DNA of 64,000 nucleotides from Vicinamibacterales bacterium (GTDB lineage Bacteria > Acidobacteriota > Vicinamibacteria > Vicinamibacterales > 2-12-FULL-66-21), in NCBI GenBank assembly GCA_036496585.1, contig DASXLB010000004.1:112929-176928 (forward strand), in the 5' to 3' direction. The translations under genes were made by a program, and so were the position numbers. A model generated the notes under the pieces. It had not been told where the DNA came from. It was given only the letters and a program-made list of their open reading frames with translations, and made no database searches. Of the stretch, positions 3,658 through 50,944 are shown in pieces (positions within the stretch are counted from its first letter, which is position 1; every line of letters begins with the position of its first letter).

Positions 3658-5868
3658 ATGACCGAGCTCACCCGGCGTGCGTTCCTGCAGACGACGGCTG
3701 CGGCCGGCGCGTTCGCGTCGGTCGGATTCACGGACGCGTCCGCCGCACAGCCGCCCGCCACGTGGTTCGACCGGCCAATGCGCTGGGTTCAGCTGACGCT
3801 GGTCGAAAACGATCCCGGGCGATTCGACCCGCAGTTCTGGCTCGACTACTTCGGGCGTCTGCACGCCGACGCCGCGACCCTGAGCGCCGGCGGCATCGTC
3901 GCCTACTACCCGACCGACGTGCCGCTGCACCATCGCAGCGCCTGGCTCGGCGACGGGGATCCGTTCGGCACGCTCGTCAAGGGCTGCCGCGCGCTCGACA
4001 TGAACGTGGTCGCGCGCGTCGATCCGCACGCCGTGCGCGACGAGGTCCGCCAGGCGCATCCCGACTGGATCGCGGTGACGGCCGACGGCCAGCCGCGCCG
4101 CCACTGGGCGAACCCCGACCTGTGGGTCAGCTGCGCGCTCGGCCCCTACAACTTCGACTTCATGGATCGCGTCAATCGCGAGATCGTCGCCAAGTACGCG
4201 GTCGACGGCGTGTTCGCGAATCGCTGGGCGCCGCAGGGGGGCGACTGTTACTGCGTGCACTGTCAGGAGAACTTCCGCCGCGCCGCCGGCCTCGCGCTGC
4301 CGCGCACGACCGATCCGCGCGATCCGGTGCGGCGCCGCTTCGTCGAGTGGCGCGTGGCACGCCTGACCGAGCTGTGGCAGCACTGGGACGCCAGTATCCG
4401 CGGCGTCCGCGCCGAAGCCCGCTTCATTCCGAACGGCCCGCCCGACATGAAGACGGCGGCGGAGCTTGCCGACATCCAGTTCGCCGACTTCCAGGCCCGC
4501 CGCGGGCTGACGCCGCCGTGGGCGAACGGCCGCCGCGCCAAGGAGTTCCGCGCCGTGATGGGGCGCAAGCCGGTCGCCGGCATCTTCAGCGTCGGTCTCG
4601 AGGAGCCGTATCGCTGGAAGGACTCGGTGCAGACCGAGCCGGAAGTGCAGCTCTGGGTTGCCGACGCCACCGCCCACGGCATGCGCCCCTGGGTGACCAA
4701 GTTCTCGGGCGTCGTCTACGACCGGCGCTGGCTGCCGATCGTCGAGCGCATCTACGACTGGCACTACCGGCACGAGCGCTATCTGCGCAACGAGCGCTCG
4801 CTCGCCCGCGTCGCGCTGCTGCACTCGGAACAGACCGAGGCGTTCCACCCGGGGATGGCGGACGGGGCCCGCCACGCGGATCACGTGCTCGGCATGTACC
4901 AGGCGCTGGTCGAGGCGCGCGTGCCGTTCGACATGGTGCACGAGGCGCTGCTCACGCCCGATCGCCTCGATCAATACCGGCTGCTGGTGCTCGCCGACGC
5001 GGCGGCGCTGTCGGTGCCGCAGTGCGAGGCGATTCGCCGCTATCTGCAGCGCGGCGGCAGCCTGATCGCGACGTTCGCCACGTCGCTCTTCGACGAGGTG
5101 GGTGTGCAGCGCCCCGATTTCGCGCTCGCCGACGTCTTCGGCGTCTCGTACGGCGGCCGTGTCGAAGGACCGATGCACAACTCCTATCTGGCGCTCGAGT
5201 CGGGAGCGGACGGCCGCCGCCATCCGATCCTCGCGGGTCTCGAAGGGACGCCCCGCATCATCAACGGTGTGTTCCGCCTCGACGTCCGCCCGGCCGGGTC
5301 AGACCGGGGTCAAACGGGGGTCAGACCCGCGTCTGACCCCGGTCTGACCCCGGCGCCCCTGACGCTCATTCCGCCGTATCCCGATCTGCCGATGGAGGAC
5401 GTCTACCCGCGGGTGCCCCACACCGACACGCCGGGTGTCTACCTGCGCGATCTCGGCCGCAGCCGCGTCGTCTATTTTCCGTGGGACATCGACCGGACGT
5501 TCTGGGACGTGCTCGCCGTCGATCACCTCACACTGTTGAAGAACGCGGTGACGTGGGCGGCGAACGGACCGTCACCGGTGACCGTCGACGGCCCGGGCGT
5601 GCTCGACGTCGCGATCTGGCGACAGGCGGCGTCGACGACCGTGCACCTGGTCAATCTCACGAACCCGATGATGATGAAGGGGCCGTTGCGCGAGGCGATC
5701 CCGGTCGGTCCGCTGCACGTGCGCGTGCCGCTGACCGACGGCCGTCGTCCGTCGAAGGTCTCGTTGCTGACGGCCGGCACCGCCGTGCCGGTCCGCATCG
5801 AGAACGGCGTCCTGCTGGTCGACGTGCCGTCGGTGGCCGTGCACGAAGTGATTGCGATCGACGACTAG
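3658..5868 (+). CDS. TAT-exported GH42-like / putative glycoside hydrolase with beta-galactosidase-trimerisation-like C-terminal region
   Basis: 736-aa track ORF. Twin-arginine signal MTELTRRAFLQTTAAAGAFASV. The CYCVHC cluster resembles the CxCxxC zinc site of GH42 beta-galactosidases. Family call is from motif recollection only. Confidence 0.7.
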   Translation: MTELTRRAFLQTTAAAGAFASVGFTDASAAQPPATWFDRPMRWVQLTLVENDPGRFDPQFWLDYFGRLHADAATLSAGGIVAYYPTDVPLHHRSAWLGDGDPFGTLVKGCRALDMNVVARVDPHAVRDEVRQAHPDWIAVTADGQPRRHWANPDLWVSCALGPYNFDFMDRVNREIVAKYAVDGVFANRWAPQGGDCYCVHCQENFRRAAGLALPRTTDPRDPVRRRFVEWRVARLTELWQHWDASIRGVRAEARFIPNGPPDMKTAAELADIQFADFQARRGLTPPWANGRRAKEFRAVMGRKPVAGIFSVGLEEPYRWKDSVQTEPEVQLWVADATAHGMRPWVTKFSGVVYDRRWLPIVERIYDWHYRHERYLRNERSLARVALLHSEQTEAFHPGMADGARHADHVLGMYQALVEARVPFDMVHEALLTPDRLDQYRLLVLADAAALSVPQCEAIRRYLQRGGSLIATFATSLFDEVGVQRPDFALADVFGVSYGGRVEGPMHNSYLALESGADGRRHPILAGLEGTPRIINGVFRLDVRPAGSDRGQTGVRPASDPGLTPAPLTLIPPYPDLPMEDVYPRVPHTDTPGVYLRDLGRSRVVYFPWDIDRTFWDVLAVDHLTLLKNAVTWAANGPSPVTVDGPGVLDVAIWRQAASTTVHLVNLTNPMMMKGPLREAIPVGPLHVRVPLTDGRRPSKVSLLTAGTAVPVRIENGVLLVDVPSVAVHEVIAIDD
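5296..5351. repeat. REP-like nested palindromic element: three GGGTCA(G/A)AC units followed by two inverted GTCTGACCCC units, in-frame inside the GH42-like CDS
   Basis: Sequence is GGGTCAGACC GGGGTCAAAC GGGGGTCAGACCC GC GTCTGACCCC GGTCTGACCCC. The core GGGGTCAGAC-CCGC-GTCTGACCCC (5317-5340) is a perfect 10-bp stem. A second 10-bp tier (5306-5315 / 5342-5351) has 1 mismatch. Both strands translate to near-identical peptides in the ORF track (GQTGV[KR]RGSDPRLTPV). Confidence 0.8.
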
Positions 5869-11694: not shown

Positions 11695-12867
11695 TTACCG
11701 GCTCTTCCGCGCCCGGATCGTCACCTTGTAGTTGTTCTCCGCATTCAGGTTGACGAGCGAAACGAAGGCGCGTCCATTGCGGTCGGTGCCGATCGTGGCC
11801 GACTGCGACACGCCCGACACCTCCCAGCCCTTTGGCAGTACGACCGTATTGCGCAGCCCCTTCAGGGTCCGCTGGAAGACGAGCTCGCCTCCGACGAGTG
11901 TGTAGCTGGGCGCCTTCACAGAGCCGGTCAGCTTCAGGTGGGCGCTCTGGCGGTCGTCGGTGATCGGGACCTCGAGTTTTGCAAACGTCGCCCCTTTGTC
12001 CTTGACGATCGACAACTCGTGCGCCGTGTCGAGATCGGTCACCTTCAGATCCCGCAGCTCGAGGTAGGACAGTGAGTCGAGCCGCGCGCGCGGGCCCTTG
12101 CGATAGTCGCTGTAGATCTGCTCGAGGGCGATCTGCCCGGACTCGGGCGCGTCGAGGTCGTAGAGCGTCTTGACGTCATCGAAGAACATGTCGTCGAACG
12201 GCGACGGCGTGAAGGCCGCCGCGGTAGGTCGCGCATGGATCGTCAGCGGATTCGACTGGCCGCTCGGATTGGCGAAGGCGAGCTTCAGCCGCCCGTCGGC
12301 CGTGGTCGAGAGCTGCGCGGCGACGTCAGACGAGATGAACGCGTAGCCCTTCGGCAGGATCACGCCGAGGCGGTAGCCGGCCAGGCTGCGTACCCAGACG
12401 ACGTCCGTGCCGTCCATCATGTAGGTACGGGCGTCCTTGTAGGTCTTGTACACGAGGATCCGGCCGATGCCGCCTTCCGGCACGGGATGAACGAGCGTGG
12501 CGCGGATCTGGTGGGCGTCAGCCTCCCCTGGCACCGGTTCGTACGTGAACGTGAGCGGCCGGCCGGTTCGCGGGTCGTAGACTTCGACGCCGCTGCCTTC
12601 GCTGCCGCCGCGCGTCGCGTTCACCATCTCGGTCGCGCCGGCTCTGGCGGTCTCGAAGAGGTAGCGGATCCGGAACGCCTCGCTGCCCGGCTCGAGAATC
12701 GCGTACTCGGTATACGCGTCCTGCGTGAAATAGCGGCTGACCGGTGCGCTCGGCCGGAGCGAACCGTCGGGATTGAGGCCGCCGGGGAACGGCTGACTGC
12801 CGCGCTGCGCGCTCAACAACGCCACGCTGACGAGTGCGCCGGCCGTGACTGTCATCCATCTCGACAT
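11695..12867 (-). CDS. Secreted hypothetical protein with internal two-fold duplication
   Basis: 390-aa track ORF with signal peptide MSRWMTVTAGALVSVALLSAQ. Both halves end with the related segments LGVILPKGYAFISSDVAAQLSTTADGRLKLAFANPSGQSNPLTIHARP and NTVVLPKGWEVSGVSQSATIGTDRNGRAFVSLVNLNAENNYKVTIRARK. I do not recognise the family. Confidence 0.75.
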   Translation of the reverse strand: MSRWMTVTAGALVSVALLSAQRGSQPFPGGLNPDGSLRPSAPVSRYFTQDAYTEYAILEPGSEAFRIRYLFETARAGATEMVNATRGGSEGSGVEVYDPRTGRPLTFTYEPVPGEADAHQIRATLVHPVPEGGIGRILVYKTYKDARTYMMDGTDVVWVRSLAGYRLGVILPKGYAFISSDVAAQLSTTADGRLKLAFANPSGQSNPLTIHARPTAAAFTPSPFDDMFFDDVKTLYDLDAPESGQIALEQIYSDYRKGPRARLDSLSYLELRDLKVTDLDTAHELSIVKDKGATFAKLEVPITDDRQSAHLKLTGSVKAPSYTLVGGELVFQRTLKGLRNTVVLPKGWEVSGVSQSATIGTDRNGRAFVSLVNLNAENNYKVTIRARKSR

Positions 12868-12873
12868 CCGGGC

Positions 12874-12879
12874 AGGATA
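12874..12879 (-). promoter_or_regulatory. -10-like box TATCCT, 6 nt upstream of ATG 12867
   Basis: The reverse strand reads TATCCT GCCCGG ATG, with no SD. This is part of the recurrent leaderless pattern. Confidence 0.35.
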
Positions 12880-12968
12880 GCATCGCCAGCGAATGACACG
12901 CTGCGACGCCAGGAGTATCGTCTACGGATGCCGGTGCCTCCCCACGCTCCTGGGACAGGAGTGAGCTC

Positions 12969-14576
12969 GTGCGGCTGAGTCTCGCGGTCACGGTGGCCAT
13001 GGCGGCGGCGGCCGTCGCCGGCGCGGTGGTGCCGGCGCGGGCTCAACACACCGGCCATCTGGGCACGGTGACGTTCGCCAATTCCTGCGGCGCCTCAGTG
13101 CAGCCGGCGCTCGCGCGCGGCGTAGCGCTGCTCCATTCGTTCGAGTTCGGCGCCGCGATCGACGCATTCGGGGACGTTGCAGCGGCGGATCCTTCGTGCG
13201 GCATCGCGGTCTGGGGGATTGCGCTGTCGCAGTGGGGAAACCCGTTCTCTCCAGCGCCGCGAGCGGCGCCGCAGCTGTCCACCGGACGCGACACAGTGCA
13301 GCGCGCGAAGGCGACGGGCGCCAGGACGCCACGCGAACGCGCCTATATCGACGCGGTGTCATCGCTCTACGATCGGTTCGACACCCTCGATCAGCACACG
13401 CGCATGGTCGCGTATCGGGATGCGATGGCGCGTCTCGTAGACGCGTATCCAGACGACACCGAGGCGAAGGCGTTCTACGGTGCGGCGCTCGCGGCGGCGG
13501 CGGATCCGACCGACAAGAGCTACGCCGATCAGTTGAAGGCCGGCGCGATGCTCGAGGTCCTCTGGGCGAAGCAGCCGGATCACCCCGGACTCGCGCACTA
13601 CATCATCCACGCCTATGACGTCCCGGCCCTGGCGCCAAAGGCGGTCGAAGCGGCACGCCGCTACGCGACGATCGCGCCCGACGCCCCGCACGCGCTGCAC
13701 ATGCCCTCGCACACCTTCACCCGCCTCGGCTACTGGCAGGACTCGATCGACACCAACATCCTGTCGGCGGCGTCGGCGAAGCGCGGCGGCAACGTCAACG
13801 AAGCGCTGCACGCCAGCGACTACGAGATCTACGCGTACCTGCAGACGGGGCAGGATGCCAAGGCCCGCGCCATCCTCGAAGACGCGCCGCGCATCGCGGC
13901 CAGTCAGAACCGGACCGCTGGCGCGGCTCCCCCCGCGGCCGCCGACTATGCGCTGGCGGCCATTCCGGCCCGCTACGCGCTCGAGCGCGGCGTGTGGGCG
14001 GAGGCCGCGCAGCTCGAGGTGAGGCCTACCGGGACGGCCTACGCCGAAGCGCTCACCTGGTTTGCGCGCGGCCTCGGCGGCGCGCGGGCCGGCGGCACAG
14101 CGGAGGCGAAGGACGCCTCCCGCGAGTTGCAGCTCAGGATCGACGCACTGAACAAGTCTGGCGACAAGTACTGGGCGGAGCAGGTCGCGATTCAAGGGCT
14201 CGCCGTCTCGGCGTGGCTCGCCCTGGCGGACGGACGCTCCGATGCCGCACTGCAGACGATGAGCGAGGCGGCCGATCGGGAGGACGCGACCGAGAAGTCG
14301 GCGATCTCTCCAGGTCCGATCGCCCCGGGACGCGAGCTGCTCGCCGAGATGCTGATGCAGCTGAAGCGTCCATCGGACGCGCTCCTCGAGTTCAGGAAAA
14401 CGATGGCCAAGGAGCCGAATCGCTTCCGCGCCCTGGCAGGCGCGGCGGAGGCGGCGGAGCAGTCCGGCGACGCGAGCTCGGCGGGCGAGTATCGCCGCCA
14501 TCTCGCCGAGATTTGCAGGAACGGCGACACGCCAGGCCGTCCCGCCTTGCAGAAAGCGCGTTCCAGCAGCCGGTGA
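12969..14576 (+). CDS. Secreted TPR-like / all-helical protein with conserved His motifs
   Basis: 535-aa track ORF with GTG start preceded by AGGAG. Signal peptide MRLSLAVTVAMAAAAVAGAVVPARA. Helical repeat-like sequence with the motifs HYIIHAYD, HALHMPSHTF and ALHASDYE. Confidence 0.75.
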   Translation: MRLSLAVTVAMAAAAVAGAVVPARAQHTGHLGTVTFANSCGASVQPALARGVALLHSFEFGAAIDAFGDVAAADPSCGIAVWGIALSQWGNPFSPAPRAAPQLSTGRDTVQRAKATGARTPRERAYIDAVSSLYDRFDTLDQHTRMVAYRDAMARLVDAYPDDTEAKAFYGAALAAAADPTDKSYADQLKAGAMLEVLWAKQPDHPGLAHYIIHAYDVPALAPKAVEAARRYATIAPDAPHALHMPSHTFTRLGYWQDSIDTNILSAASAKRGGNVNEALHASDYEIYAYLQTGQDAKARAILEDAPRIAASQNRTAGAAPPAAADYALAAIPARYALERGVWAEAAQLEVRPTGTAYAEALTWFARGLGGARAGGTAEAKDASRELQLRIDALNKSGDKYWAEQVAIQGLAVSAWLALADGRSDAALQTMSEAADREDATEKSAISPGPIAPGRELLAEMLMQLKRPSDALLEFRKTMAKEPNRFRALAGAAEAAEQSGDASSAGEYRRHLAEICRNGDTPGRPALQKARSSSR

Positions 14577-14823: not shown

Positions 14824-15461
14824 GCCTCCCGACGCTGCATGGCAGATGCCGTGGTGACGGCGCGTCGAGCTGGCAGCAGAGCCGCGGCCCCGAGCAGCAG
14901 CGCGATCGCTGCGAACGCGAGGTAGCCGGCCGAGCTCGGCTGCTGCACCTGCGCGATAGACCCGAACGTCGCCGCGTCGAAGACGGCGACCAGTACGCGT
15001 CCGGTCGCGCTCGCGGCCGGCTCCGCCAGCGCCGCCAGGACGACGAACTTGAGGATGAGCCCGGCGCCGAGAATCACCGCGAGACTGCGCAGCAGGCGGA
15101 CGCGATCCGGCTGCGCGACGATGGTGTTGAGCAGCAGGACGAACAGGAACGCCGCGACGAAGAACCGCGGCAGCCCGCTGCCCGGAGTGATCATCGTCAG
15201 CACCGCCGCCGCCGCGACGAGGAGCGCGATGAGGACGACCGCGCCGTTGGCGTTGGCCAGGATTGGCCGTGAGCCATGCAGCAGTCGAGCGGGATCGAGG
15301 GCGCCGCTGCGGATGAGCGCCGCCACGACGAGCGTGCCGAGCACGAGCGAGTACGGCGTGGGCGGGACGAAGACCAGCGGCGCGCCGGGTTGGACGCCCG
15401 CCATCAGCGTCGCTGTGAGCAGCATCAGCGGAAGCACGATCGCTTCGCGAACCGAGCTCAT
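14820..15461 (-). CDS. Polytopic integral membrane protein, unknown function
   Basis: 213-aa track ORF with about 6 hydrophobic segments (e.g. AIVLPLMLLTATLMAGV, FFVAAFLFVLLLNTIVA, ILGAGLILKFVVLAALA). ATGA overlaps with both neighbours. Confidence 0.75.
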   Translation of the reverse strand: MSSVREAIVLPLMLLTATLMAGVQPGAPLVFVPPTPYSLVLGTLVVAALIRSGALDPARLLHGSRPILANANGAVVLIALLVAAAAVLTMITPGSGLPRFFVAAFLFVLLLNTIVAQPDRVRLLRSLAVILGAGLILKFVVLAALAEPAASATGRVLVAVFDAATFGSIAQVQQPSSAGYLAFAAIALLLGAAALLPARRAVTTASAMQRREA

Positions 15462-15958
15462 TTGCGTTTCCTGAACACCCGCAGCGGATTGAAGTCCGCC
15501 GCTTCGATCGTCAGGCCCCGCTCGAGCTCCGCCCGCAGTTCGTCGGCCGAGTGCATCTGGAGATCGGGATCGTCGACGACCAGCCGCCCGTCCGGAGCGA
15601 CCGCGATCGCCCGGTCGACCGCCGCCAGTCCCTTCGTGAACAGCGGGTCGTCGTCATAGAGCCGTCCCCACCCTTCGCGGTAAAAGGCGTAGGCGATGTA
15701 GAACTGCGTGCGGGCGTCGCGCTGCGCGCGATCGGCGCGGCCGAACGCCGCGCGCGCTTCCGGGAACTGATCGTGCCGGAAGAACTGCAGCCCGTCGTCG
15801 AACGCCGGTCGATCGATCGCGTAGACGCCCGCCATCGCGGTGAGTCCGCCGCTCACCTCCGCCACCGACTGTGGCTGGTTGGCGTAGATCCACGCGATCA
15901 GCGCCCCATAGCCCAGCGCCATCGCCAGTCCGCCCGCTCTGATGACCGTGTCCCGCAC
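15458..15958 (-). CDS. N-terminally membrane-anchored protein with TPR-like helical domain, unknown function
   Basis: 166-aa track ORF. One TM segment (GGLAMALGYGALIAWIYA), then FFRHDQFPEARAAFGRADRAQRDARTQFYIAYAFYREGW. Confidence 0.7.
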   Translation of the reverse strand: MRDTVIRAGGLAMALGYGALIAWIYANQPQSVAEVSGGLTAMAGVYAIDRPAFDDGLQFFRHDQFPEARAAFGRADRAQRDARTQFYIAYAFYREGWGRLYDDDPLFTKGLAAVDRAIAVAPDGRLVVDDPDLQMHSADELRAELERGLTIEAADFNPLRVFRKRK

Positions 15959-28534: not shown

Positions 28535-31192
28535 CTATCCGACGTTTCGCATGCCGGCGGCGATGCCGTTGACCGTCACCAGAAAAGCCCGCCACAGGTT
28601 GTCGTCGACGCCGCGGCCGCCGCGCAGGTGCGTGAGGAGCGCGATCTGGACGAAGTTGATCGGATCGACGTAGGGGTTGCGGACGTCGATCGACCGGCGC
28701 AGCACCGGATTGTCTTCGAGCAGCACGCGCGCCCCGAGCGCGTCGAGGACCGCCTCCCGGGCCCGCATGAGCCGGGCGCGCAGGTCGGTGCCGACGTCGC
28801 GCAGCTCCGGCGGCACCAGCGCGCGATCGTAGGCGTCGGCGATCCCCGGCTCCGCCTCGGCGAGCGCCATCTCGATCAGGCGCAGCGTGGCGTTGAAGAA
28901 CGGCCACTCGCGCGCCATCCGCCGCACCAGATCCTGTTCGCCGCGCGCCGCGGCGGCGTCGAGCGCCTCGCCGGTGCCGAGCCACGACGGCAGCAGCAGC
29001 CGCGTCTGCGTCCAGGCGAAGACCCACGGAATGGCGCGCAGCGATTCGACGCCGCCGCGGCTGCCGCGCCGGGCCGGCCGGCTGCCGATCGGCGCGCGCG
29101 CGATCTCCTGCTCCGGCGTGGCGCTGTGAAAGTAGGCGAGAAATCGCGGGTCGTCGTAGACGGTGCGCCGGTAGACGGCGTGCGCGTCGCCCGCCAGCCG
29201 TTCCATCGCGCCCCGCCATGCTTCGGGGACGGCTGCCGGCGCTTCGAGCGAGGCGCGCAGCACCGAGGTCACGTAGACCTCGAGCGTGCGCAGCGCGATC
29301 TCCGGCAGCCCGAACTGTTCCTCGATCATCTCCCCCTGCACGGTCACCCGCAGCCGCCCGTTGATCGATCCCGGCGGCTGCGATCGCATCGCCAGCGGGA
29401 TCGGTCCGCCGCCGCGGCCGATGCTGCCGCCGCGACCGTGGAACAGCGTCAGCTCGACACCCGCGTCGCGCGCCGCGGCGACCACCGCCTCCTGCGCCTT
29501 GTACAGATGCCAGTTCGCGGCGAGCCGCCCGCCGTCCTTGGCGGAGTCGGAGTACCCGATCATCACCTCGCTGGGGGGCTGCACCCCGCCGGACCCCGCC
29601 GCACCGTCGCCGGCGGAGATCCCGCCGACGCGCAGCGATCGTGGCTCGCTCGCGGCGCCGGTTCGCGGCGTCCAGAGGGCCCGCATCGTCTCACCGGCCT
29701 GCTCGAGCGTCGCGACTTCCTCGAAGAGCGGGACGACGCGCAAGGACGAGCCGTGGGCCTGCTGCAGGTACTCGACGGCCAGTACGTCGGACGGCGTCCG
29801 GGCCATCGAAATGACGTAGGCACCCAGCGAGTCGCGCGGGATTTCGGCGATCGCGCGGAAGGTGGCGAGCGCCTCGTCGACGTCGGGGCCGGCGTCGAGA
29901 TCGCGGGGCACCGGCGTGCGCTCACGCATCGCGTGGCGGAGGAACTGCTGCCGCGCGTCCTCGCTCCATTCGGTGTAGCGTCCAAGCCCGAGGCGGCCGG
30001 TTAGCGCGTCCAGTACCTGCGCGTGGCGTTCCGCGTGCTGGCGGATGTCGAGGCGGACGAGCGAGGTGCCGAAGGCGGCGATCCGGCGGAGCACGTCGGT
30101 GAGACGCCCGTCGGCGAGCAGGGGCTGCCCGGTCTCGATGAGCGACCGGTGGCAGAGCTCCAGCGCGTCGCGCAGCTCGCGGGCGCCAACGTGATGATCG
30201 GGTTCGCGCAGCCGGCGCGCCAGGTGGCGCATGACCGCGCGGTACGGTTCGCGGGCGCCGCCGGTCGCGTCGCGCAGCTCGGCGGTCGCCGCCGTGATCG
30301 GCAGCTCGCCGGCCAGCGCGTCGAGTTCCCGCGCGTAGAGCGACGCGGCGAGCGCGCGCGCGGCGGCGCAGGCCTCGCGCGTGACCTCGGCGGTGATCGC
30401 CGGGTTGCCGTCGCGATCGCCGCCGATCCACGAGCCGAACACGATCGGCGCGGCGGCCAGCGGCAGGCGCGCGCCGGTCGCTTCGAGGAGGGCGCGGTCC
30501 ATGGCGCGGAGGCAGCGCGGCAGCGCGTCCCACAGCGTCTGCTCGAAGATGTAGAGGCCGCTGCGGACTTCGTCGAGCGGCCGCGGCTTCTGACGCCGCA
30601 CGTCCTCCGTGCCCCACATCGCGAGAATCTCGCGGCGAAGCCCGGCTTCGACCTCCTCGCGCTCGAACGCGCTGAGGTCGCCGCGATCGTGGCGCTCGAG
30701 CGCCGCCGCGACGCGGGCGTGGGCGGCGGCGAGCGTGCGGCGGGTGATCGTCGTCGGATGCGCGGTGACGACCAGCGCGATCTGCATCCGGCCCGCGGCG
30801 GCGTGCAGATCCTCGGGCGACGCGCCTGCCTCGAGGATCTTCGGAAAGATCTGCTGACAGGATCCGCGCTGGCCCCGCGACGCGTCCTCGCGCTGATAGT
30901 CGCGCCGCCGCCGCACGCGGTGGTGCTGCTCGGCGATGTTGGCGAGCGCCAGGAAGTGCGCGAAGGCGCGCGCCACCGGCACCGCCATCTCGAGCGGCAG
31001 GTCGCGCAGCGGCTTCTCGAGCCGCCCGACGTCCTGCGCGGCCTCCTGACGCGCCGCCTTGGCGGCCCGCCGGATCCGCTCCACCGTCTCGAACAGCGCG
31101 TCCCCCTCGCGCGCCCGGATCGTGTCGCCGAGCATGCCGCCGAGCATCGACACGTCTTCGCGCAGCCGCTGGTGAGGATCGGCGGGACTCAC
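28535..31192 (-). CDS. ppc: Phosphoenolpyruvate carboxylase
   Basis: 3' portion of the 2358-aa track ORF. GTG 31192 gives VSPADPHQRLREDVSMLGGMLGDTIR (canonical Ppc N-terminus). Internal motifs VVTAHPT and GYSDSAKDGG are present, and the C-terminus is NGIAAGMRNVG. 885 aa. The start overlaps the upstream stop (GTGA). Confidence 0.95.
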   Translation of the reverse strand: MSPADPHQRLREDVSMLGGMLGDTIRAREGDALFETVERIRRAAKAARQEAAQDVGRLEKPLRDLPLEMAVPVARAFAHFLALANIAEQHHRVRRRRDYQREDASRGQRGSCQQIFPKILEAGASPEDLHAAAGRMQIALVVTAHPTTITRRTLAAAHARVAAALERHDRGDLSAFEREEVEAGLRREILAMWGTEDVRRQKPRPLDEVRSGLYIFEQTLWDALPRCLRAMDRALLEATGARLPLAAAPIVFGSWIGGDRDGNPAITAEVTREACAAARALAASLYARELDALAGELPITAATAELRDATGGAREPYRAVMRHLARRLREPDHHVGARELRDALELCHRSLIETGQPLLADGRLTDVLRRIAAFGTSLVRLDIRQHAERHAQVLDALTGRLGLGRYTEWSEDARQQFLRHAMRERTPVPRDLDAGPDVDEALATFRAIAEIPRDSLGAYVISMARTPSDVLAVEYLQQAHGSSLRVVPLFEEVATLEQAGETMRALWTPRTGAASEPRSLRVGGISAGDGAAGSGGVQPPSEVMIGYSDSAKDGGRLAANWHLYKAQEAVVAAARDAGVELTLFHGRGGSIGRGGGPIPLAMRSQPPGSINGRLRVTVQGEMIEEQFGLPEIALRTLEVYVTSVLRASLEAPAAVPEAWRGAMERLAGDAHAVYRRTVYDDPRFLAYFHSATPEQEIARAPIGSRPARRGSRGGVESLRAIPWVFAWTQTRLLLPSWLGTGEALDAAAARGEQDLVRRMAREWPFFNATLRLIEMALAEAEPGIADAYDRALVPPELRDVGTDLRARLMRAREAVLDALGARVLLEDNPVLRRSIDVRNPYVDPINFVQIALLTHLRGGRGVDDNLWRAFLVTVNGIAAGMRNVG

Positions 31193-32046
31193 GGCAGGAG
31201 GCGCCGGCTGTGGAGGAACGAGGCGACGGCGGGGAAGAAGCGCGGGTCCTTCTCGCTGGCGTAGATGTGGCCGCCCGCCACTTCCACGAACTGCTTCGGC
31301 TGCGGCGCCGCCGCGAACAGCCGGCGGGCCTCGCCGATCGGCACCACGACGTCTTCGGGACTGTGCAGGAACAGGATCGGCGCGTGAATGGCGCCGACCC
31401 GCAGGATCGACTCGAAGGGATTCCGGATGATCAACCGTACAGGAAACATCGGGTACCGCTGCTGGCCGATGGCGACGATCGAGGCGGGCGCTCCCTCGAG
31501 GACCACCGCGGCGGCGTCGACATGCGACGCCAGCGTGACCGCGACCGCCGAGCCGAGCGACCAGCCGTAGATCACGATGTGCTGCGGATCGACGTGCCGG
31601 CGGGTGCGCAGGTAGTCGTACCAGTGCGCGGCGTCTTCGGCGAGCCCCGGCTCGGTCGGCGTGCCGGCGAGGCCGCCGAAGCCGCGATACTCGGGCGCCA
31701 GCACGTTGACGCCGAGGGCGCGCAACCGCTCGTAGTGCAGCACGTTCATACGGCTGGCGAGGGTGCTGTCGTTGCCGTGCAGATAGACCACCCACACCGC
31801 GGCGCCGGGCGACACCGCCGGCATCAGCCACGCCCTGCCGGTGGGCCGGCCGCCGGTGGCTGCCGGCGGCTCCTCGAGCTGTTCGTAGGGCTGCGCCGGC
31901 CGCCGCGCGTCGAACGGCGCATCGGCGCGGAACACGAGCCGCGTCTCGTTGGCGATCAGCCAGCCGATCGTGGCGGCGTAGGCGACGACCACCAGCGTCA
32001 GCACGCCTGCGATCGCGCGTCTCCACGTCAGCCCTGAGCGGTCCAT
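31189..32046 (-). CDS. Alpha/beta hydrolase (membrane-anchored, S9/S33-like)
   Basis: Track ORF 31189..32229. Start set to ATG 32046 (MDRSGLTWRRAIAGVLTLVVVAYAATIGWLIA, TM anchor). Nucleophile elbow is IYGWSLGSAVA. Translationally coupled to ppc. Confidence 0.82.
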   Translation of the reverse strand: MDRSGLTWRRAIAGVLTLVVVAYAATIGWLIANETRLVFRADAPFDARRPAQPYEQLEEPPAATGGRPTGRAWLMPAVSPGAAVWVVYLHGNDSTLASRMNVLHYERLRALGVNVLAPEYRGFGGLAGTPTEPGLAEDAAHWYDYLRTRRHVDPQHIVIYGWSLGSAVAVTLASHVDAAAVVLEGAPASIVAIGQQRYPMFPVRLIIRNPFESILRVGAIHAPILFLHSPEDVVVPIGEARRLFAAAPQPKQFVEVAGGHIYASEKDPRFFPAVASFLHSRRLLP

Positions 32047-32134: not shown

Positions 32135-35100
32135 ATGAAGAACTCGTCGCTCGCCGCGGTGTGCGCCGCGGGCACGCTGATCGTGTCCGCACTGAGCAGC
32201 CGGCCGGCGGCCAACGGCGCGCCGACCAAGCTGCTGCGGATGCCGACGGTCAGCGCGACGCAGATCGCCTTCGCCTACGCCAACAACATCTGGACAGTGG
32301 ATCGGGCTGGCGGCGCCGCGCGCCGCCTGACCAGCTTCCAGGGGCAGACCACCAACCCGCACTTCTCGCCAGACGGCCGCTGGATCGCCTTCAGCGGCGA
32401 GTACGCCGGCAACGTCGACGTCTACGTCGTCGCGGCCGACGGCGGCGAGCCGAAGCGGCTGACCTGGCACCCGGGCGCCGACGCGGTGCAGGGCTGGACG
32501 CCAGACGGGAAATCGATCGTCTTCGCGTCGAGCCGTGCCACTGCCGCGCCGACCGGCGCACCGCGCTTCTGGACGGTGCCGGCCGACGGCGGCATTGAGG
32601 AGCCGATGGCGCTGCCGCGCGGCTACCAGGGAAAGATCTCGTCCGACGGCACGCACATCGCGTATCGCATGAACAACTCCTGGGACGAGGAGCGCCGCAA
32701 CTACCGCGGCGGCCAGAACCGGCCGATCTGGATCGTCGACCTCAAGACCTACGAGCTCGTCTCGCCGCCGTGGACCAACTCGAAGGACATCGACCCGGTC
32801 TGGGTCGGCGACGCCGTCTACTTCCTCTCGGATCGCGACGGCGTGTCGAACGTGTGGAGCTTCGACACCAGGGCGAAGACGCTCGCGCAGGCGACGAAGT
32901 TCACCGACTTCGACGTCAAGACGCTGGATGCGAGCGGCAGCACCGTGGTCTTCGAGCAGGCGGGGCAGATCCACGAACTGGACGCGAAGAGCGGCAAGGA
33001 GAAGATCGTCCCGATTACCGCCGCCGGAGATTTTCCGTGGATGATGCCGCGTTGGGAGGACGTGACGGCGCGGATGACCAGCATCGCGCTGTCGCCGACC
33101 GGCAAGCGGATCGTCGTCGAATCGCGCGGCGAGATTTTCACGATCCCCGTCGAAAAAGGGGACGTCCGCAACCTGTCGCACTCGAGCGGATCGGCCGAGC
33201 GCGATCCGGCCTGGTCGCCCGACGGCAAGTACGTGTCGTACTTCAGCGACAAGTCCGGCGAGTACAAGCTGATCATCGAGCCGCAGGACGGCCTCGGCAC
33301 GCCGCGCGAGATTCCGCTCGAAGGGAAATTTCACTACTACACGCCGTCGTGGTCGCCCGACTCGAAGCGCCTGCTCTATACCGACACCAACCTGAGCGTG
33401 TGGGTGCTCGACGTCGCCAGCGGCGAGGGACGGATCGTCGGCCGCGATCCGTGGATGGTGCCGCAGCGCACCGAGAATCCCTCGTGGAGTCCCGACTCCA
33501 AGTACGTCGCCTATGCGGCCCACCTCAACACGCTCTACAAGGCGATCTTCATCAGCAACGTCGAGACGGGTGAATCGAAGCAGGTGACCGACGGCCTGGC
33601 GGACGCGACCTGGCCAGTCTGGGACGCGAGCGGCAAGTACGTGTGGTTCCTGGCCTCGACCGACTTCGGCCTGCGGTCGCAGTGGCTCGACATGACGTCC
33701 TACGACCACAACGAGAACTTCGGGCTGTACCTCGCGGTGCTGAAGAAGGGGGAGCCGAGCCCGCTCCTGCCTGAGAGCGACGAAGACACCGGCGTCACCT
33801 TCGCGCCAGGACGCGGTACGCCTGAGGCCCCGGGCGGCCGCGGCCGTGGCGGACGCGGTGCGGCCGCGGACCAGGCGGGCGACTCCGCCCCGCGTGGCGA
33901 CGCGGCGGCGTCGCAGGAGCAGCCGGACCGCGCGCCGCGCGTCCCGGTAACCGTCCAGATCGATTTCGACGGCCTGTCGCAGCGCATCGTCGCGATTCCC
34001 AACGTGCCGGTGCGCGACTACGACAAGCTGCTGCCCGGCGTTGCCGGCACCGTCTTCTACGAGCAGGCCGCGGCGGCCGGCGAAGACGATGGCGGCGGGA
34101 GAGGCGGCGCGGCGGGCGGCAACGCCGTCATCCGCTACCGCCTCAGCGATCGCCGTGCTGCGACGTTCGTCACCAGCGCGGCCGATTACGCGGTCAGCGC
34201 CGACGGGCGCAAGCTGCTGTATCGGACCGGCGGCGGCGGCCGCGGCGGCGGCCGCGGTCCGGCTGGCGGCGCCACCGGTCCGGGACTGTTTCTCGTCGAC
34301 GCGGATCGCAATCCGCCGGCGGCAGGACAGGGGCGCGTCAACGCGACGCTGCGGATGTATCTCGAGCCGAAGGACGAGTTCAGGCAGATCTTCGACGAGG
34401 GTTGGCGCAACCAGCGCGACTATCTCTACGTGCCGAACATGCACGGCACCGACTGGGCGAAGGACAGGGAGATGTACGGCCAGTTCCTGCCGTACGTGAA
34501 TCACCGCGCCGATCTCAACTACCTGCTCGACATGATGGGCGCCGAGATTTCGATCGGCCACTCGTACGTCCGCGGTGGCGACATGCCCGACGTGCCGCCG
34601 TCGATTGGCGGCCTGCTCGGCGCCGACTTCACCGTCGACAGCGGCCGCTACAAGATCGCGCGCATCTACGACACCGAGAGCTGGAATCCGGATCTGCGCG
34701 CGCCGCTCGCCGCGCCGGGCGTCGACGTCAAGGTCGGCGACTTCGTGGTCGCCGTCAACGGCATCGAGCTCAAGGCGCCCGACAACATCTACCGCCTGCT
34801 CGACGGCACGGCGAACCGTCAGACGGTGCTGGCGATCAACAGCCGTCCGGCGATGGAGGGGGCCAGACAGGTGACGGTGATCCCGGTCGCCAACGAGCAG
34901 ACGCTGCGCACGCGCGCCTGGGTCGAGGCGAACCGGCGGCTCGTCGACAAGCTGTCGAACGGCCAGCTCGCCTACGTGTATCTGCCCAACACCGGCCAGC
35001 CCGGCTACACCAGCATGAATCGCTACTACTTCTCGCAGCAGGACAAGAAGGGAGCGATCGTCGACGAACGCTACAACGGCGGCGGCTCGGCGGCGGACTA

Positions 35101-35579
35101 CATCATCGACGTGCTGCAGCGCGATTTCGACGGCTACTTCAACAACGTTGCCGGCGATCGCGTGCCGTTCACGAGCCCGGCGGCCGGGATCTGGGGACCC
35201 AAGGTGATGATCATCAACGAAATGGCCGGCTCCGGCGGCGACCTGATGCCCTACATGTTCCGGCACCGCAAGGTCGGCCTGCTGGTCGGCAAACGCACCT
35301 GGGGCGGCCTCGTCCATACCGCCGACACGCCGACGTTCATCGACGGCGGCTCGATGATCGCGCCGCGCGGCGGCTTCTTCGATCGCGACGGCAAGTGGGC
35401 GGTCGAAAACGAGGGCGTCGCTCCCGACGTCGACGTGGAGAACTGGCCGAAGGACGTGATCGCCGGCCACGACCCCCAGCTCGAGCGCGCCGTGCAGGAA
35501 GGGCTGCGCATGTTGAAGGAGAAGCCGGTCGAGCGATTGATGAAGGAGCCGGCGCCGCCGACGCCGGGAAAGCGCAAGG

Positions 35580-35590
<11 letters not shown>
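32135..35590 (+). CDS. Tricorn protease homolog (beta-propellers + PDZ + S41 peptidase), secreted
   Basis: 1151-aa track ORF with GGAGA SD. N-terminal LLRMPTVSATQIAFAYANNIWTV...NPHFSPDGRWIAFSGEY...VYVV is tricorn-like. TolB-like SPDG repeats are present, and the C-terminal S41 region contains INEMAGSGGD. It also contains three Gly/Arg-rich low-complexity inserts. Confidence 0.9.
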
Positions 35591-38156
<2,566 letters not shown>

Positions 38157-38618: not shown

Positions 38619-39497
38619 GTGCCGCCTGCGAACCGTTCAGCTCGGGTACCCGCCTACCTCGCGCTGCTGGCGGCGATCGCCGGCATCGCCTGGTCGGCGA
38701 TCCTCGTCCGCTGGGCGGGTGTGCCGGGCGCGGTCTCCGCGTTCTACCGCGTACTGGTGGCGGGCGTCGTGCTGCTGCCGTGGAGGCTGATGCGTGGCCC
38801 CACCCGGCCGATCGCCTCCCGCGCCGCGGTCATCGCGGTGTTCGGGGGCGTGTTCTTCGCGCTCGACATCGCGCTGTGGAATACCTCGGTCATGCACACC
38901 GGCGCCGCGGTCGCGTCGATCCTCGGCAACAACACGCCGATCTTCGTCGGCATCCTCACCTGGCTGGTGCTGCGCCGGCGTCCGCGCGCCGCGTTCTGGA
39001 TCGGGCTGTCGCTCTCGGTCGTCGGCTGCCTGTTGATCATGGTCGGCCCCGTGCACGCCGGCTCGGCGCCGATCACGGTGTTCGGCAACCTCATGGCGAT
39101 CGCCGCCAGCTTCTTTTTCGCCGGCTACCTGGTGACGACCGAGCGGGTCCGCCGCGAGATGGACACGCTGACCTTCAACGCGCTGGCGATTGCCGGCAGC
39201 ATCCTGACCATGCTGATCGTGTGCGTCGCGATGCGCTTCCCGCTGACCGGCTATCCGCCGCGCGCCTGGCTGGCGCTCGTCGCGCTCGGCCTCGTCTCGC
39301 AGCTCGCGTCGTACTACGCGCTCGTCTACGCACTCGGCCACCTGCCGGCGACGCTGACGTCGGTGGGACTGCTGGCGCAGGTCCCGTCGACCGCGTTCCT
39401 CGCCTGGCTCCTGCTCGGCGAGCCGCTGACGCCACTGCAGCTCGCCGGCGGCGCGGTCGTACTGGCTGGTATCGTCGTGGTCAATCGCGGCCGGTGA
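38619..39497 (+). CDS. EamA/DMT superfamily transporter
   Basis: 292-aa track ORF with GTG start, 10 predicted TM segments and two EamA-like halves. CATAAT lies 8 nt upstream of the start. Confidence 0.85.
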   Translation: MPPANRSARVPAYLALLAAIAGIAWSAILVRWAGVPGAVSAFYRVLVAGVVLLPWRLMRGPTRPIASRAAVIAVFGGVFFALDIALWNTSVMHTGAAVASILGNNTPIFVGILTWLVLRRRPRAAFWIGLSLSVVGCLLIMVGPVHAGSAPITVFGNLMAIAASFFFAGYLVTTERVRREMDTLTFNALAIAGSILTMLIVCVAMRFPLTGYPPRAWLALVALGLVSQLASYYALVYALGHLPATLTSVGLLAQVPSTAFLAWLLLGEPLTPLQLAGGAVVLAGIVVVNRGR

Positions 39498-39538
39498 GCC
39501 GCGCCGCGGTCGTGTCTCGTCTCAGGCGGGGTCAGACC

Positions 39539-46387: not shown

Positions 46388-49483
<3,096 letters not shown>

Positions 49484-49510
49484 CTGCGGATTGCCAACAG
49501 CCAACTTTTC

Positions 49511-50944
49511 ATGCACAAACTCCGCGCGCCGGTGACCCGCCGCCAGGCCCTCTGCACCATGGGCAACGGCTTCGGTCTGCTCGCGTTCGCCAGCCTGGTC
49601 GGGCGTTCGCTCGACCTCGCCGCGCAGACGCCGGGGCTCCATCATCCCGCCAGGGCCAAGCATGTCATCTTCCTGTTCATGAACGGCGGCCTGTCGCAGG
49701 TCGACAGCTTCGACCCGAAGCCGATGCTCGAGAAGTACAACGGCCAGCCGCTGCCGGGCGGTGCGGTGGCGACCGAACGGCGGACCGGCGGTTTGATGAA
49801 GTCGCCGTTCGCGTTCAAGCGGTACGGCAAGAGCGGGCTCGAGGTCAGCGAGCTGTTTCCGATGGTCGGCGAGCACGCCGACGACATCTGCGTGATCCGG
49901 TCGATGTACACCGACATCCCGAACCACGAGCCGTCGCTGCTGATGATGAACACCGGCCACACGCAGGTCGGCCGTCCGTCGATGGGGGCCTGGCTGACCT
50001 ACGGGCTCGGCACCGACAACCACAACCTGCCCGGCTTCGTGGTCCTCTGTCCGGAGACGCCGACCACGGTCGGATCGCCGCTCTGGAGCAGCGCCTTCCT
50101 GCCGGCCGTGCACCAGGGCACCTTCATCCGCGACAAGGTGGAGAAGAAGGATCAGATCGTCGAGAAGGACTTCGACCCGAAGACGCTCGTCTCCTACGTC
50201 AGCAACGACAAGTTCACGCTCGACGAGCAGCGGCGCGAGATCGATCTGGCGGCCGCGCTCGACAAGCTGCGCGCCGACCGCGAGCACATCGCCGATCCGC
50301 AGCTCGAGGCCGCCATCAGCTCGATGGAGGTCGCTTACCGGATGCAGACCGAGGCGCCGGAGGTGTTCGACATCCGCAAGGAGAGCAAGGCGACGCTGGA
50401 GCTCTACGGCCCGGGCAGCACCGCGCGCAGCTGCCTGATGGCGGTGCGCCTCGTGCAGAAGGGGGTGCGGATGGTGCAGGTCTACTACTCGTCGGGCGAT
50501 CCGTGGGACGCGCACGGCGATCTGTACTCGCAGCACCGCAAGCCGGCCTTCGACTCCGACCGTCCGTTCGCCGCCGTGATCAAGGATCTCAAGTCGCGCG
50601 GCCTGTTCGACGAGACGATCGTCGTGTGCGGTTCGGAGTTCGGCCGGACGCCGGTCGCCGAAATCGGCTCCGGCGGCGGCGGCTTCAATGCCGGCCGCGA
50701 TCACAATCCGTTCGGCTTCTCGATGTGGCTCGCCGGCGGCGGATTCAAGGGCGGGACCGTCTACGGCGCGACCGACGACTTCGGCTTCAAGGCGATCGAG
50801 AAGCCGATGCACGTGCACGACCTGCACGCCACCATCCTGTATCTGCTGGGCATCGATCACACCAAGCTGACGTATCGTTACAGCGGCCGCGACTTCCGGT
50901 TGACCGACGTCGCCGGCACCGTCGTCAAGGAGATCCTCGCCTGA
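49511..50944 (+). CDS. DUF1501 domain protein (sulfatase/alkaline-phosphatase-like fold), TAT signal
   Basis: 477-aa track ORF. VTRRQALCTMGNGFGLLAFASL, then HVIFLFMNGGLSQVDSFDPKP and CGSEFGRTP...GRDHNP, typical of DUF1501 partners of DUF1553 proteins. Confidence 0.9.
   Translation: MHKLRAPVTRRQALCTMGNGFGLLAFASLVGRSLDLAAQTPGLHHPARAKHVIFLFMNGGLSQVDSFDPKPMLEKYNGQPLPGGAVATERRTGGLMKSPFAFKRYGKSGLEVSELFPMVGEHADDICVIRSMYTDIPNHEPSLLMMNTGHTQVGRPSMGAWLTYGLGTDNHNLPGFVVLCPETPTTVGSPLWSSAFLPAVHQGTFIRDKVEKKDQIVEKDFDPKTLVSYVSNDKFTLDEQRREIDLAAALDKLRADREHIADPQLEAAISSMEVAYRMQTEAPEVFDIRKESKATLELYGPGSTARSCLMAVRLVQKGVRMVQVYYSSGDPWDAHGDLYSQHRKPAFDSDRPFAAVIKDLKSRGLFDETIVVCGSEFGRTPVAEIGSGGGGFNAGRDHNPFGFSMWLAGGGFKGGTVYGATDDFGFKAIEKPMHVHDLHATILYLLGIDHTKLTYRYSGRDFRLTDVAGTVVKEILA

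Follow-up and report, generated by a model that had tools for sequence, protein, structure and literature searches.

A candidate dispersed palindromic repeat arrayed in frame in a GH42-like gene of a Vicinamibacterales bacterium

The window analyzed here, a 64-kb stretch of DNA from a Vicinamibacterales bacterium, contains a gene that carries, in frame, five head-to-tail copies of a palindromic unit repeated with an exact 11-nt period. We interpret this array as one copy of a dispersed, self-complementary short-unit repeat that is selfish or neutral, sits here in loop-encoding DNA, and is usually found in spacers at gene 3′ ends; we consider this reading likely, with a probability of about 0.7. 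Because arrays of the unit recur in spacers and in unrelated enzymes, we regard the array as a selfish repeat resembling REPs and the palindromic elements of Rickettsia (RPEs) rather than as a feature of the protein, and we assign it no protein-level function. It persists because the disordered, hypervariable loop of this secreted enzyme is tolerant and because this particular array passes a reading-frame filter.

Selfish palindromic DNA inside protein-coding genes has so far been best documented in the reduced genomes of Rickettsia. We now see this behavior in soil bacteria that are free-living and high in GC, where the element is far simpler and built from self-complementary 11-nt units. Because the unit is so short, its constraints are legible straight from the sequence: a copy number of n = 2 mod 3, forbidden orientations, stops purged from every third reverse unit, and rare variants that are mirrored. 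The arrays would thus be a compact natural example of non-coding repeats entering coding loops and of hairpin-templated concerted evolution. They also inflate loop regions in alignments, produce look-alike peptides (GSDP, GQTP, GVRP, GLTP) in unrelated proteins as well as in spurious ORFs, and are likely hotspots of indels and assembly errors. The features in the window are as follows.

3658..5868, plus strand: host gene, 736 aa; twin-arginine motif TRRAFL near the N terminus; domains GHL6 and GH42M; GH42/GH151/GH164-like three-domain fold
5291..5355, no strand: whole-array palindrome with 32-nt arms (5291-5322 and 5324-5355), 88% complementary, centered on unit 3
5295..5351, plus strand: complete five-unit array, 11 x 5 + 2 = 57 nt, giving the peptide GSDRGQTGVRPASDPGLTP in the host frame
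5295..5351, plus strand: centre bases of the array, A in units 1-3 and T in units 4-5
5296..5305, plus strand: unit 1, GGGTCAGACC, centre A at 5301, read G-S-D
5306..5315, plus strand: unit 2, GGGGTCAAAC, centre at 5312, carrying a G-to-A change that leaves the amino acid unaltered (CAA = Q)
5317..5328, plus strand: unit 3, GGGGTCAGACCC, centre at 5323, read G-V-R-P, tip of the minimum-energy hairpin
5330..5340, minus strand: unit 4, CGTCTGACCCC, centre T at 5334, read (A)-S-D-P
5341..5351, minus strand: unit 5, GGTCTGACCCC, centre T at 5345, read G-L-T-P
5304-5326 with 5331-5353, no strand: alternative palindrome register, from the inverted-repeat search
39528..39538, plus strand: solo unit, GGGGTCAGACC, in a 41-nt spacer between convergent ORFs

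The array was defined by repeat search and by inspection of the sequence at 5296-5351, where a preliminary description of this DNA had placed it. TRF reports a period of 11 with 5.2 copies over 5294-5350, and the repeat search finds three direct copies spaced by 11 and 11 nt and two inverted arms of 23 nt (91%). The unit centres fall at 5301, 5312, 5323, 5334 and 5345. The string GGGTCAGAC occurs five times in the window against 0.56 expected, a number reached in 0 of 100 shuffles. Each unit is a 13-nt palindrome, GGGGTC[A/T]GACCCC, with a 1-nt centre. The order given earlier, three direct units followed by two inverted ones, is correct, with the qualification that 'direct' and 'inverted' copies differ at the centre base only. 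Because each unit is itself palindromic, several hairpin registers exist. In the minimum-energy fold, unit 1 pairs with unit 5 and unit 2 with unit 4, with a folding energy of -33.9 kcal/mol as DNA (z = -5.5) and -57 kcal/mol as RNA (z = -5.3 to -7.3). The two-tier hairpin proposed before is also present, both as a perfect 10-bp stem (5317-5326 paired with 5331-5340) and as a second tier with one mismatch. No terminator-like site was found between 4800 and 6000, and no U/T run follows the array hairpin. Neither target-site duplications nor defined ends were found for the array; the one flanking repeat, the pentamer CCGGC (5290-5294 and 5350-5354), was rejected as a target-site duplication, as CCGG belongs to every unit junction.

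The host protein matches PF14871 (7.6e-16) and PF08532 in Pfam, with a TAT_signal match under its cut-off, and compares with GH151 and GH42 structures at TM scores of 0.63-0.68. As previously claimed, the array is translated in the frame of ORF 3658-5868; the insert corresponds to residues 547-565, an addition of 19 codons. AF2 assigns pLDDT values below 50 to residues 550-566, between strands 538-545 and 592-598, and the loop accepts the added Gly/Ser/Asp/Pro/Thr-rich residues. Four codons of the insert, AGA, TCA, TCT and CAA, occur 0, 1, 0 and 1 times in the remainder of the gene. Because these codons are nearly unused elsewhere, the insert appears to be driven by DNA and not by the protein.

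Comparison with orthologs agrees with the suggestion that the segment is a lineage-specific, in-frame insertion in a loop. The array is missing from 117 of 120 orthologs, the short loop outside the closest clade reads VRPTQPFPSP, and the DNA alignment of L002 with the window has a 45-nt gap at the array. The preliminary description had named orthologs from unrelated taxa with the same peptide encoded by non-palindromic DNA as evidence against it; the sole ortholog DNA that encodes the peptide, L224, is also palindromic. The array boundaries at L224 differ from those in the window by 12 nt upstream and 3 nt downstream. At L003, an extra segment retains two GTCAG motifs exactly 11 nt apart, which may represent decay of an array where it is not maintained. 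The array-bearing orthologs (the query, P0001, L224 and P0012) are dispersed over a star-like tree of poor resolution, such that a single ancestral colonization needs many losses, while recurrent gain needs an unexplained target preference. P0001, P0012 and P0015 are known as peptides, and we deduce the arrangement of their units from these. With 82 aa surrounding the insert as a protein query, the only matches were short pieces of orthologs, all without the insert; the L224 protein as query recovered the ortholog set already obtained, with no array carrier any closer.

Only one of six frames, that of the host gene, is open through the array; the other five meet a TGA inside it. The TGA of unit 4 closes the +3 frame (ORF 3762..5336 stops there) and that of unit 5 closes the +2 frame (ORF 5102..5347). 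The unit had been described as almost stop-free in most frames, which holds for a single unit (five of six frames open) but fails for this array. A complete array of n overlapping units measures 11n+2 nt, and the frame is therefore kept only for n = 2, 5, 8 and so on. We count five units in the window, five at L224 and eight at L228; the peptides of P0001 and P0012 would correspond to five and two. Orientation is restricted as well. The unit with a T centre contains GTC-TGA-C and must therefore avoid one of the three phases; under this rule an array of five units may consist of three forward and two reverse units, but not of two and three. In the HisH array of L227, which has a super-period of 33 nt (96%), every third reverse unit carries GTTGAA or GTCGAA in place of GTCTGA, and the TGA is lost. 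In the gene-internal copies, the copy numbers and orientations that are kept are those that leave the frame open.

The 64-kb window contains one array and one solo unit. The latter, correctly located before in an intergenic spacer, lies between the end of an EamA transporter ORF at 39497 and that of a minus-strand ORF at 39539. This setting is the usual one for the family, yet chance could also account for one extra match. Related contigs, about 38 kb in all, contain no copies of the unit. Other Vicinamibacterales MAGs (L124, L055 and L116) carry intergenic 11-nt arrays, with 10.7 units between convergent genes at L124, and at four Acidobacteriota loci (L012, L029, L040 and L068) copies lie directly past stop codons. 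The neighbors of 74 classifiable intergenic copies are convergent in 30 cases, tandem in 39 and divergent in 5. Members occur singly, as inverted pairs and in clusters; 156 unit matches comprise 103 inverted pairs and 53 direct ones, and copies at L093, L064 and L086 have A- and T-runs. These copies support the assignment of the unit to a dispersed palindromic family that lies mostly between genes and at gene 3′ ends.

Several copies lie inside other genes. At L227, an array of nine forward and eight reverse units, with 88-nt arms that are 95% complementary, is in frame in HisH within a his operon. At L228, eight units (90 nt) are in frame in a HIBADH-like gene; over 33 bases, units 1-3 agree with those of the window at 32, the TCAAAC variant among them, and the G-to-A change of window unit 2 recurs in unit 2 of L228. 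Related in-frame forms with other spacings are present in RimO, SecA and AlaS, and one Planctomycetia MAG has a single 45-nt forward-reverse-reverse element in both RimO and SecA, in different frames. The analogy with rickettsial palindromic elements, drawn before, is therefore sound with respect to behavior.

Evidence on how the arrays evolve comes from comparing the window with L224. Between the two genes, 33% of four-fold sites differ. In the array cores only 2 of 49 positions differ (P = 9e-7), fewer than at first and second codon positions, whereas the linkers differ at 7 of 7 positions (Fisher P = 1.6e-7). Inside any one array, the reverse units exactly complement the forward ones, and this extends to the linkers. 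At L227, units F6 (GGGGTTCAACC) and R3 (GGTTGAACCCC) have a rare variant in common. Conserved cores combined with differing linkers point to hairpin-templated homogenization; the conservation of the cores could instead reflect selection by a putative binding factor.

Based on these observations, we suggest the following course of events. The loop was probably colonized near the base of an ortholog clade with 80-86% identity, and expansion, decay and deletion would have followed in different lineages. Slippage in 11-nt steps would alter the number of units. Fold-back copying templated by the hairpin, in the manner of quasipalindrome template switching, an established mechanism (PMC7202029), would keep the arms reverse-complementary down to their idiosyncratic variants and leave cores uniform and linkers lineage-specific. 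Placement at new sites may be due to a transposase such as RAYT, or to ectopic template switching or gene conversion.

We searched for a mobilizing enzyme and for earlier descriptions of the element. As the preliminary description stated, no RAYT/TnpA-REP gene is present among the 38 called genes of the window, which have no Pfam match to RAYT, Y1_Tnp or any other transposase. The ORFs of 120 genome loci and 37 viral loci (L006-L162) contain no recurrent transposase-like family; all-against-all clustering of ORFs around the copies returned generic families (ABC ATPase, histidine kinase, response regulator) and phage genes, and no candidate mobilizing enzyme. Searching the literature for the unit string in DNA and RNA spellings yielded only unrelated primers and viral sequences and no published description. 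Neither plasmids, searched by BLAST with the array, nor cultured phages, searched with the hairpin, yielded a match, a result to which the low-complexity filter may contribute. A link to the terminal repeat of Tn3 (GGGGTCTGAC...) was also considered and dropped, as the two have nothing in common past those 10 bases.

Could the array have arisen in place? A chance seed, for example V-S-D-R encoded by GTGTCAGACCGG, might have been amplified by slippage and fold-back independently in several lineages, with no genome-wide family. Several observations fit: at least three lineages, none the closest relative of another, have arrays at this loop, the loop is hypervariable in this clade alone, P0012 and P0015 show VSDR at a loop of normal length, and each array is self-consistent inside with linkers that differ between lineages. 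We nevertheless consider a purely local origin unlikely. The identical unit with the same 11-nt period is found in spacers of other Vicinamibacterales and in the unrelated HisH and HIBADH-like genes, the latter with the window's first 33 nt and its rare variant; a 45-nt element recurs within one MAG, in two genes and two frames; and a seed does not account for identical cores at 33% neutral divergence. We think it much less probable still that the array is a contingency locus, in which slipped-strand mispairing would add or remove one unit, the frame would shift, and the enzyme would be cut short at once by the TGAs of the array, turning the glycosidase reversibly ON or OFF. The 11-nt unit does not divide into whole codons, both other forward frames stop within the array, the number of units varies among orthologs (two, as inferred, five, and decayed forms), and arrays of 8-17 units exist in related genomes. 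However, five units are a short tract, and no frameshifted allele was found: a metagenome scan with gene flank plus unit gave one further contig, whose array is in frame. Moreover, family copies are mostly intergenic, and arrays are also present in housekeeping genes (hisH), for which switching would be detrimental.

A function in the host gene was also weighed. The mRNA hairpin could pause ribosomes or mark a processing site between domains of the TAT substrate, or the insert could be a selected flexible linker. Such a role is consistent with the high stability of the hairpin, with cores that outdo first and second codon positions in conservation, and with matching variants that preserve the complementarity of the arms. 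We rate it as very improbable, since nearly all orthologs are without the array and others show decay, no terminator-like tail, promoter or Rfam family was found at the array (Rfam 15 at the gathering score, in the window and 20 loci), the peptide varies by lineage (GVRPASDPGLTP versus GVRLQSDPSLTP), and the same sequence in unrelated genes and spacers is not specific to this gene. Fold-back artifacts, for instance a chimeric read, can yield palindromes, but the probability of an assembly or sequencing artifact is close to nil: L001, an independent metagenome contig with 2 mismatches in 3322 nt, has the same array, homologous arrays are present at L224 and P0001 from other samples, and the reading frame is intact, so that three independent assemblies already contradict it. 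A dispersed selfish or neutral repeat is the reading we adopt.

The core, with variable spacers, also occurs in Acidobacteriota, Actinomycetota, Planctomycetota, Pseudomonadota, Gemmatimonadota and Bacillota, in candidate-phyla-radiation lineages and in phage-like contigs. A scan of viral contigs found 37 stretches for the target, 6 and 12 for two composition-matched palindromes, and 43 for GGGACWGTCC. Sixteen of the 37 viral matches belong to one related virus group and six to a single contig; the excess is thus weaker than it appears, and cross-phylum enrichment is not established. A broader proposal is that the 13-nt palindrome is the recognition or propagation core of an undescribed cross-phylum element, kept by a sequence-specific factor and colonizing coding loops subject to the frame filter, with some arrays perhaps doubling as frameshift switches; we regard it as doubtful. 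Should the recurrence across phyla prove to exceed a selection effect, it would call for a conserved factor or mechanism as yet undescribed.

Among known systems, contingency loci of Neisseria and Haemophilus resemble the array in that a tandem unit of a length not divisible by three lies within a gene whose product is secreted or exposed at the surface. They have 1-8-nt units in many copies and documented variation within populations, which was not observed here. Quasipalindrome mutagenesis explains how imperfect inverted repeats become perfect (PMC7202029) and how rare variants come to be mirrored on both arms (F6/R3 of L227; the T..A linkers of L224), but it is a mutational mechanism and not an element family, and leaves dispersal to new loci unexplained. 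RPEs (Ogata et al. 2000) are single elements of about 105-150 bp, each with a conserved peptide, found in Rickettsia only (summarized in PMC10969869 and PMC3184786). RPEs and the present arrays are alike as selfish palindromes in frame in unrelated, often housekeeping genes, with a lineage-specific peptide at a fold-tolerant site. They differ in that ours are arrays of 11-nt self-complementary units (24-230 nt; 57 nt in the window) in free-living soil bacteria, here a member of the Vicinamibacterales, with copy number and orientation set by a frame rule.

REP, BIME and REPIN sequences are mobilized by RAYT, and REPs are extragenic by definition (PMC3116915, PMC3337134). They share with this family short GC-rich palindromes that occur singly, as inverted pairs or clustered, mainly in convergent spacers and at the 3′ ends of genes, and that form sequence populations within a genome. 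In contrast, the unit lacks the 5′ GTAG tetranucleotide of many REP classes, no RAYT accompanies it in the window, its perfect 13-nt palindrome has a centre of 1 nt where REPs are stem-loops of 20-40 nt, and it forms exact 11-nt tandem arrays, of which this copy and several others are intragenic. Intragenic MITEs, such as ERIC, Coxiella QMITE1 and those of Anabaena (PMC10969869, PMC5896051), are likewise non-autonomous repeats able to fuse in frame with host ORFs. MITEs end in constant terminal inverted repeats, are flanked by target-site duplications and depend on a cognate insertion sequence, and nothing of the kind is seen here; the array boundaries differ between the window and L224, and architectures vary between loci.

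BREs of Betaproteobacteria (Hot et al. 2011) are GC-rich tandem repeats of about 90 bp, variable in copy number at a locus and mostly intergenic, with about nine cases inside protein genes (PMC3110155). Their greater length sets them apart, as do the published supplementary sequences, which are without the core, and a relationship was rejected. BREs were considered because several of the unit matches are from Alcaligenaceae and Oxalobacteraceae.

The array at 5296-5351, GGGTCAGACC GGGGTCAAAC G GGGGTCAGACCC G CGTCTGACCCC GGTCTGACCCC, is a member of a dispersed family of self-complementary short-unit repeats, lodged in a tolerant coding loop. Its TC[A/T]GA centres (5301, 5312, 5323, 5334 and 5345) keep an exact 11-nt period, TRF reports 5.2 copies of period 11, and the 9-mer GGGTCAGAC has five occurrences in the window where 0.56 would be expected. 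A repeat search recovered direct copies at spacings of 11 and 11 nt and two inverted-repeat registers, 5304-5326 / 5331-5353 (91%) and 5291-5322 / 5324-5355 (88%). The three direct and two inverted units of the preliminary description are thus present, but that description overlooked that the single unit is itself a palindrome, GGGGTC[A/T]GACCCC. Because of this, "direct" and "inverted" copies are distinguished by the centre base alone. Together the units make up a single long palindrome, centred on unit 3, that can pair in several registers. Folding of the segment yields -33.9 kcal/mol for DNA and -57 kcal/mol for RNA (z from -5.3 to -7.3). L001, an independent contig differing by 2 mismatches over 3322 nt, has the same array.

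The host ORF (3658-5868) encodes 736 residues, with a twin-arginine TRRAFL at the N-terminus, a Pfam TAT_signal match under the cut-off, and GHL6 and GH42M domains in a three-domain fold resembling GH151/GH42/GH164 (TM 0.63-0.68). The source names of its orthologs point to Vicinamibacterales. Among 120 orthologs, the long insert is present only in the query and P0001; P0009 and P0014 carry different additional residues at this position, and the others have a short loop, a constant VRPTQPFPSP beyond the closest clade. Alignment of the DNA with the ortholog locus L002 leaves a clean 45-nt gap at the array, and the AlphaFold model shows residues 550-566 as coil (pLDDT below 50) flanked by strands 538-545 and 592-598, all of which upholds the earlier proposal of a lineage-specific, in-frame loop insertion. 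The insert codons AGA, TCA, TCT and CAA are used 0, 1, 0 and 1 times elsewhere in the gene, indicating that the sequence is dictated by the DNA repeat and not by coding constraints. Immediately 3' of the insert lies PLTLIPPYPDLPMEDVYPR (5356-5412, residues 567-585), near-invariant in 58 aligned orthologs although the model shows residues 569-584 as low-confidence coil (pLDDT below 50); this segment may represent a conserved extended motif in the GHL6 family.

A single unit leaves five of six frames open, as expected from the view that the unit is almost stop-free in most frames, but this does not extend to the window array, where only the host frame is open and each of the other five contains one TGA. 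A T-centre unit reads GTC-TGA-C in one phase, and the 11-nt period rotates the phase unit by unit. In a five-unit array, T-centre units are permitted at positions 1, 2, 4 and 5 and forbidden at position 3; therefore three forward plus two reverse units are allowed and two plus three are not. A complete array of n overlapping 13-mers spans 11n+2 nt, which is divisible by three only if n = 2 mod 3. The window array is retained because it passes this frame filter.

A metagenome scan for a unit preceded by the conserved INGVFR flank identified L224, whose protein is 82% identical to the host protein. Its array occupies the same loop, GTGTCAGACA GGGGTCAGACT GGGGTCAGACT GC AGTCTGACCCC AGTCTGACCCC, with three forward and two reverse units in the same phase as in the window. 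This array is perfectly palindromic about a point between units 3 and 4, and its minimum-energy RNA fold has 22 bp around a 4-nt loop. Four-fold sites of the two genes differ at 33%, whereas the array cores differ at 2 of 49 positions (P = 9e-7) and the linkers at 7 of 7 (Fisher P = 1.6e-7). In both arrays the reverse units repeat the forward units in exact reverse complement, and this extends to the linker. The array boundaries are 12 nt apart upstream and 3 nt downstream. Array-bearing genes are dispersed across a star-like clade of orthologs: judged from the peptides only, P0001 would have five units (GSD-GQT-GVK-GSD-GQT) and P0012 two (VSDRGLTP). The 8 additional residues of P0009 (L003:4655-4685) are encoded by GGCGTCAGGCG GAAGTCAGAAG, in which two GTCAG are kept exactly 11 nt apart; we read this segment as a probable decayed two-unit remnant.

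In-frame copies also occur in unrelated genes. A phmmer search with the 30-residue insert peptide against 1.84 billion representatives matched 11 proteins, all with an 11-residue periodic peptide of the GSDRGQTGVRP type. One of them, P0153, is HisH, encoded in the L227 operon (hisD-C-B-H-A-F); about 76 residues separate positions 109 and 110 of its TIGR01855 profile match. The in-frame array of this gene (L227:2693-2917, roughly 228 nt) runs through nine forward units, then a spacer, then eight reverse ones, with a period of exactly 11 nt and 88-nt arms that are 95% complementary. Every third reverse unit has GTTGAA or GTCGAA in place of GTCTGA, producing a 33-nt super-period (96%) and eliminating exactly those stops that would lie in frame. 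A rare variant is present in both arms, where reverse unit 3, GGTTGAACCCC, repeats forward unit 6, GGGGTTCAACC, in exact reverse complement, and a linker variant is common to forward unit 7 and reverse unit 2; these mirrored variants indicate that the arms were copied from each other. The HIBADH-like dehydrogenase P0164 carries eight units in 90 nt, the first three matching window units 1-3 at 32 of 33 bases, TCAAAC variant included. A Planctomycetia MAG has an identical 45-nt forward-reverse-reverse element of 15-nt period in RimO (L065:1978-2018), read as GSDP three times, and in SecA (L108:2681-2721), read as GQTP-GLTP-GLTP, so two frames are used. AlaS of a Devosia MAG (L095:1393-1480, minus strand) contains two in-frame 27-nt hairpins, GGGGTCAGACCC-NNN-GGGTCTGACCCC, one slightly decayed, just upstream of the conserved ELCGGTH motif, with the residues PNKAWSV in between.

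Screening a single genome of each species for two units within 24 nt gave at least 120 stretches. At positions left free in the pattern, C follows GACC in 144 of the 156 matches listed and G precedes GGTC in 143, a strong bias that identifies the natural unit as an 11-13-nt palindrome. Most copies among the matches listed have no spanning ORF, and the 74 classifiable intergenic ones lie between 30 convergent, 39 tandem and 5 divergent gene pairs (chi-square about 17 against 25/50/25, P about 2e-4), a strong bias that places these copies at gene 3' ends. In a Vicinamibacterales MAG (L124:3566-3684), an intergenic array of 10.7 units, period 11, separates convergent genes and provides both stops: the first unit contains the TGA of the plus-strand gene and the last, inverted unit the stop of the minus-strand gene. 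Further intergenic examples in this order are L055 and L116, and four Acidobacteriota loci (L012, L029, L040, L068) have copies immediately 3' of stop codons. The solo forward unit reported earlier at 39528 is indeed present, inside a 41-nt spacer between convergent genes.

The core GGGGTC[A/T]GACCCC is found in many phyla (L006-L125), whether paired, in hairpins or in arrays, and with spacers that vary. Among the matches listed, it occurs in Oxalobacteraceae (several per 8 kb), Alcaligenaceae, Gaiellaceae, Ilumatobacteraceae, Planctomycetota, Gemmatimonadaceae, low-GC Lachnospiraceae and candidate-phyla-radiation lineages, and a longer version, AAATGGGGTCAGACCCCATTT, turns up repeatedly in Pseudomonadota and Gemmatimonadota that are unrelated. 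Selection by the search pattern may account for part of this breadth; the recurrence may also reflect convergence or a shared factor. Viral-contig scans gave 37 stretches for the core, a count inflated by one virus clade, against 6, 12 and 43 for control palindromes. The 43 paired stretches belong to the sister palindrome GGGAC[A/T]GTCCC (L181-L223), as frequent as the target, and the 6 and 12 to two composition-matched controls; there may be a preference for cores centred on C[A/T]G. Within L126-L162, about 16 phage-like contigs of high GC that are related to one another and have an HK97-type capsid gene carry a 27-nt hairpin, GGGGTCAGACCC-(GCA/TGC)-GGGTCTGACCCC, several times each (e.g. L141:1111, 4609, 6350), in several cases directly adjoining TAG (e.g. 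L126, L135, L141, L146).

Since cores are uniform, linkers differ by lineage and rare variants are mirrored, we infer slippage plus hairpin-templated copying, which would have shaped unit number and arms (quasipalindrome template switching, PMC7202029). That copies occur in unrelated genes, and in two genes of the same genome, favours the placement of ready-made elements over a purely local origin. The window array behaves like Rickettsia palindromic elements and intragenic BRE, ERIC and MITE copies (PMC10969869, PMC3184786, PMC3110155), and the genomic setting of the family resembles that of REP/BIME/REPIN elements (PMC3116915). However, the array departs from what defines each of them: its length is not in the range of about 100-150 bp, it is without terminal inverted repeats or a target-site duplication, and its unit has no GTAG. 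In agreement with the preliminary description, no RAYT or other transposase was found in the 38 window genes scanned, a set excluding about 9.6-11.7, 16.0-18.8, 27.6-30.0 and 55.4-56.4 kb. No terminator or promoter signal was found at the array, no Rfam family matched, and no published description of the unit was found in the literature searched.

Other features of the window are as follows; the last three lie near the Planctomycete-type pair.
within 11695-14576, 15458-15958 and 30023-31264: four sizeable ORFs (390, 535, 166 and 413 aa), good coding statistics, no Pfam match at E <= 1e-4
46388-50944: Planctomycete-type gene pair, PSCyt1/PSCyt2/PSD1 (DUF1549/DUF1553) then DUF1501
32135-35590: tricorn-like protease
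35580-38156: Ser/Thr kinase with beta-propeller repeats
two MacB/FtsX permeases
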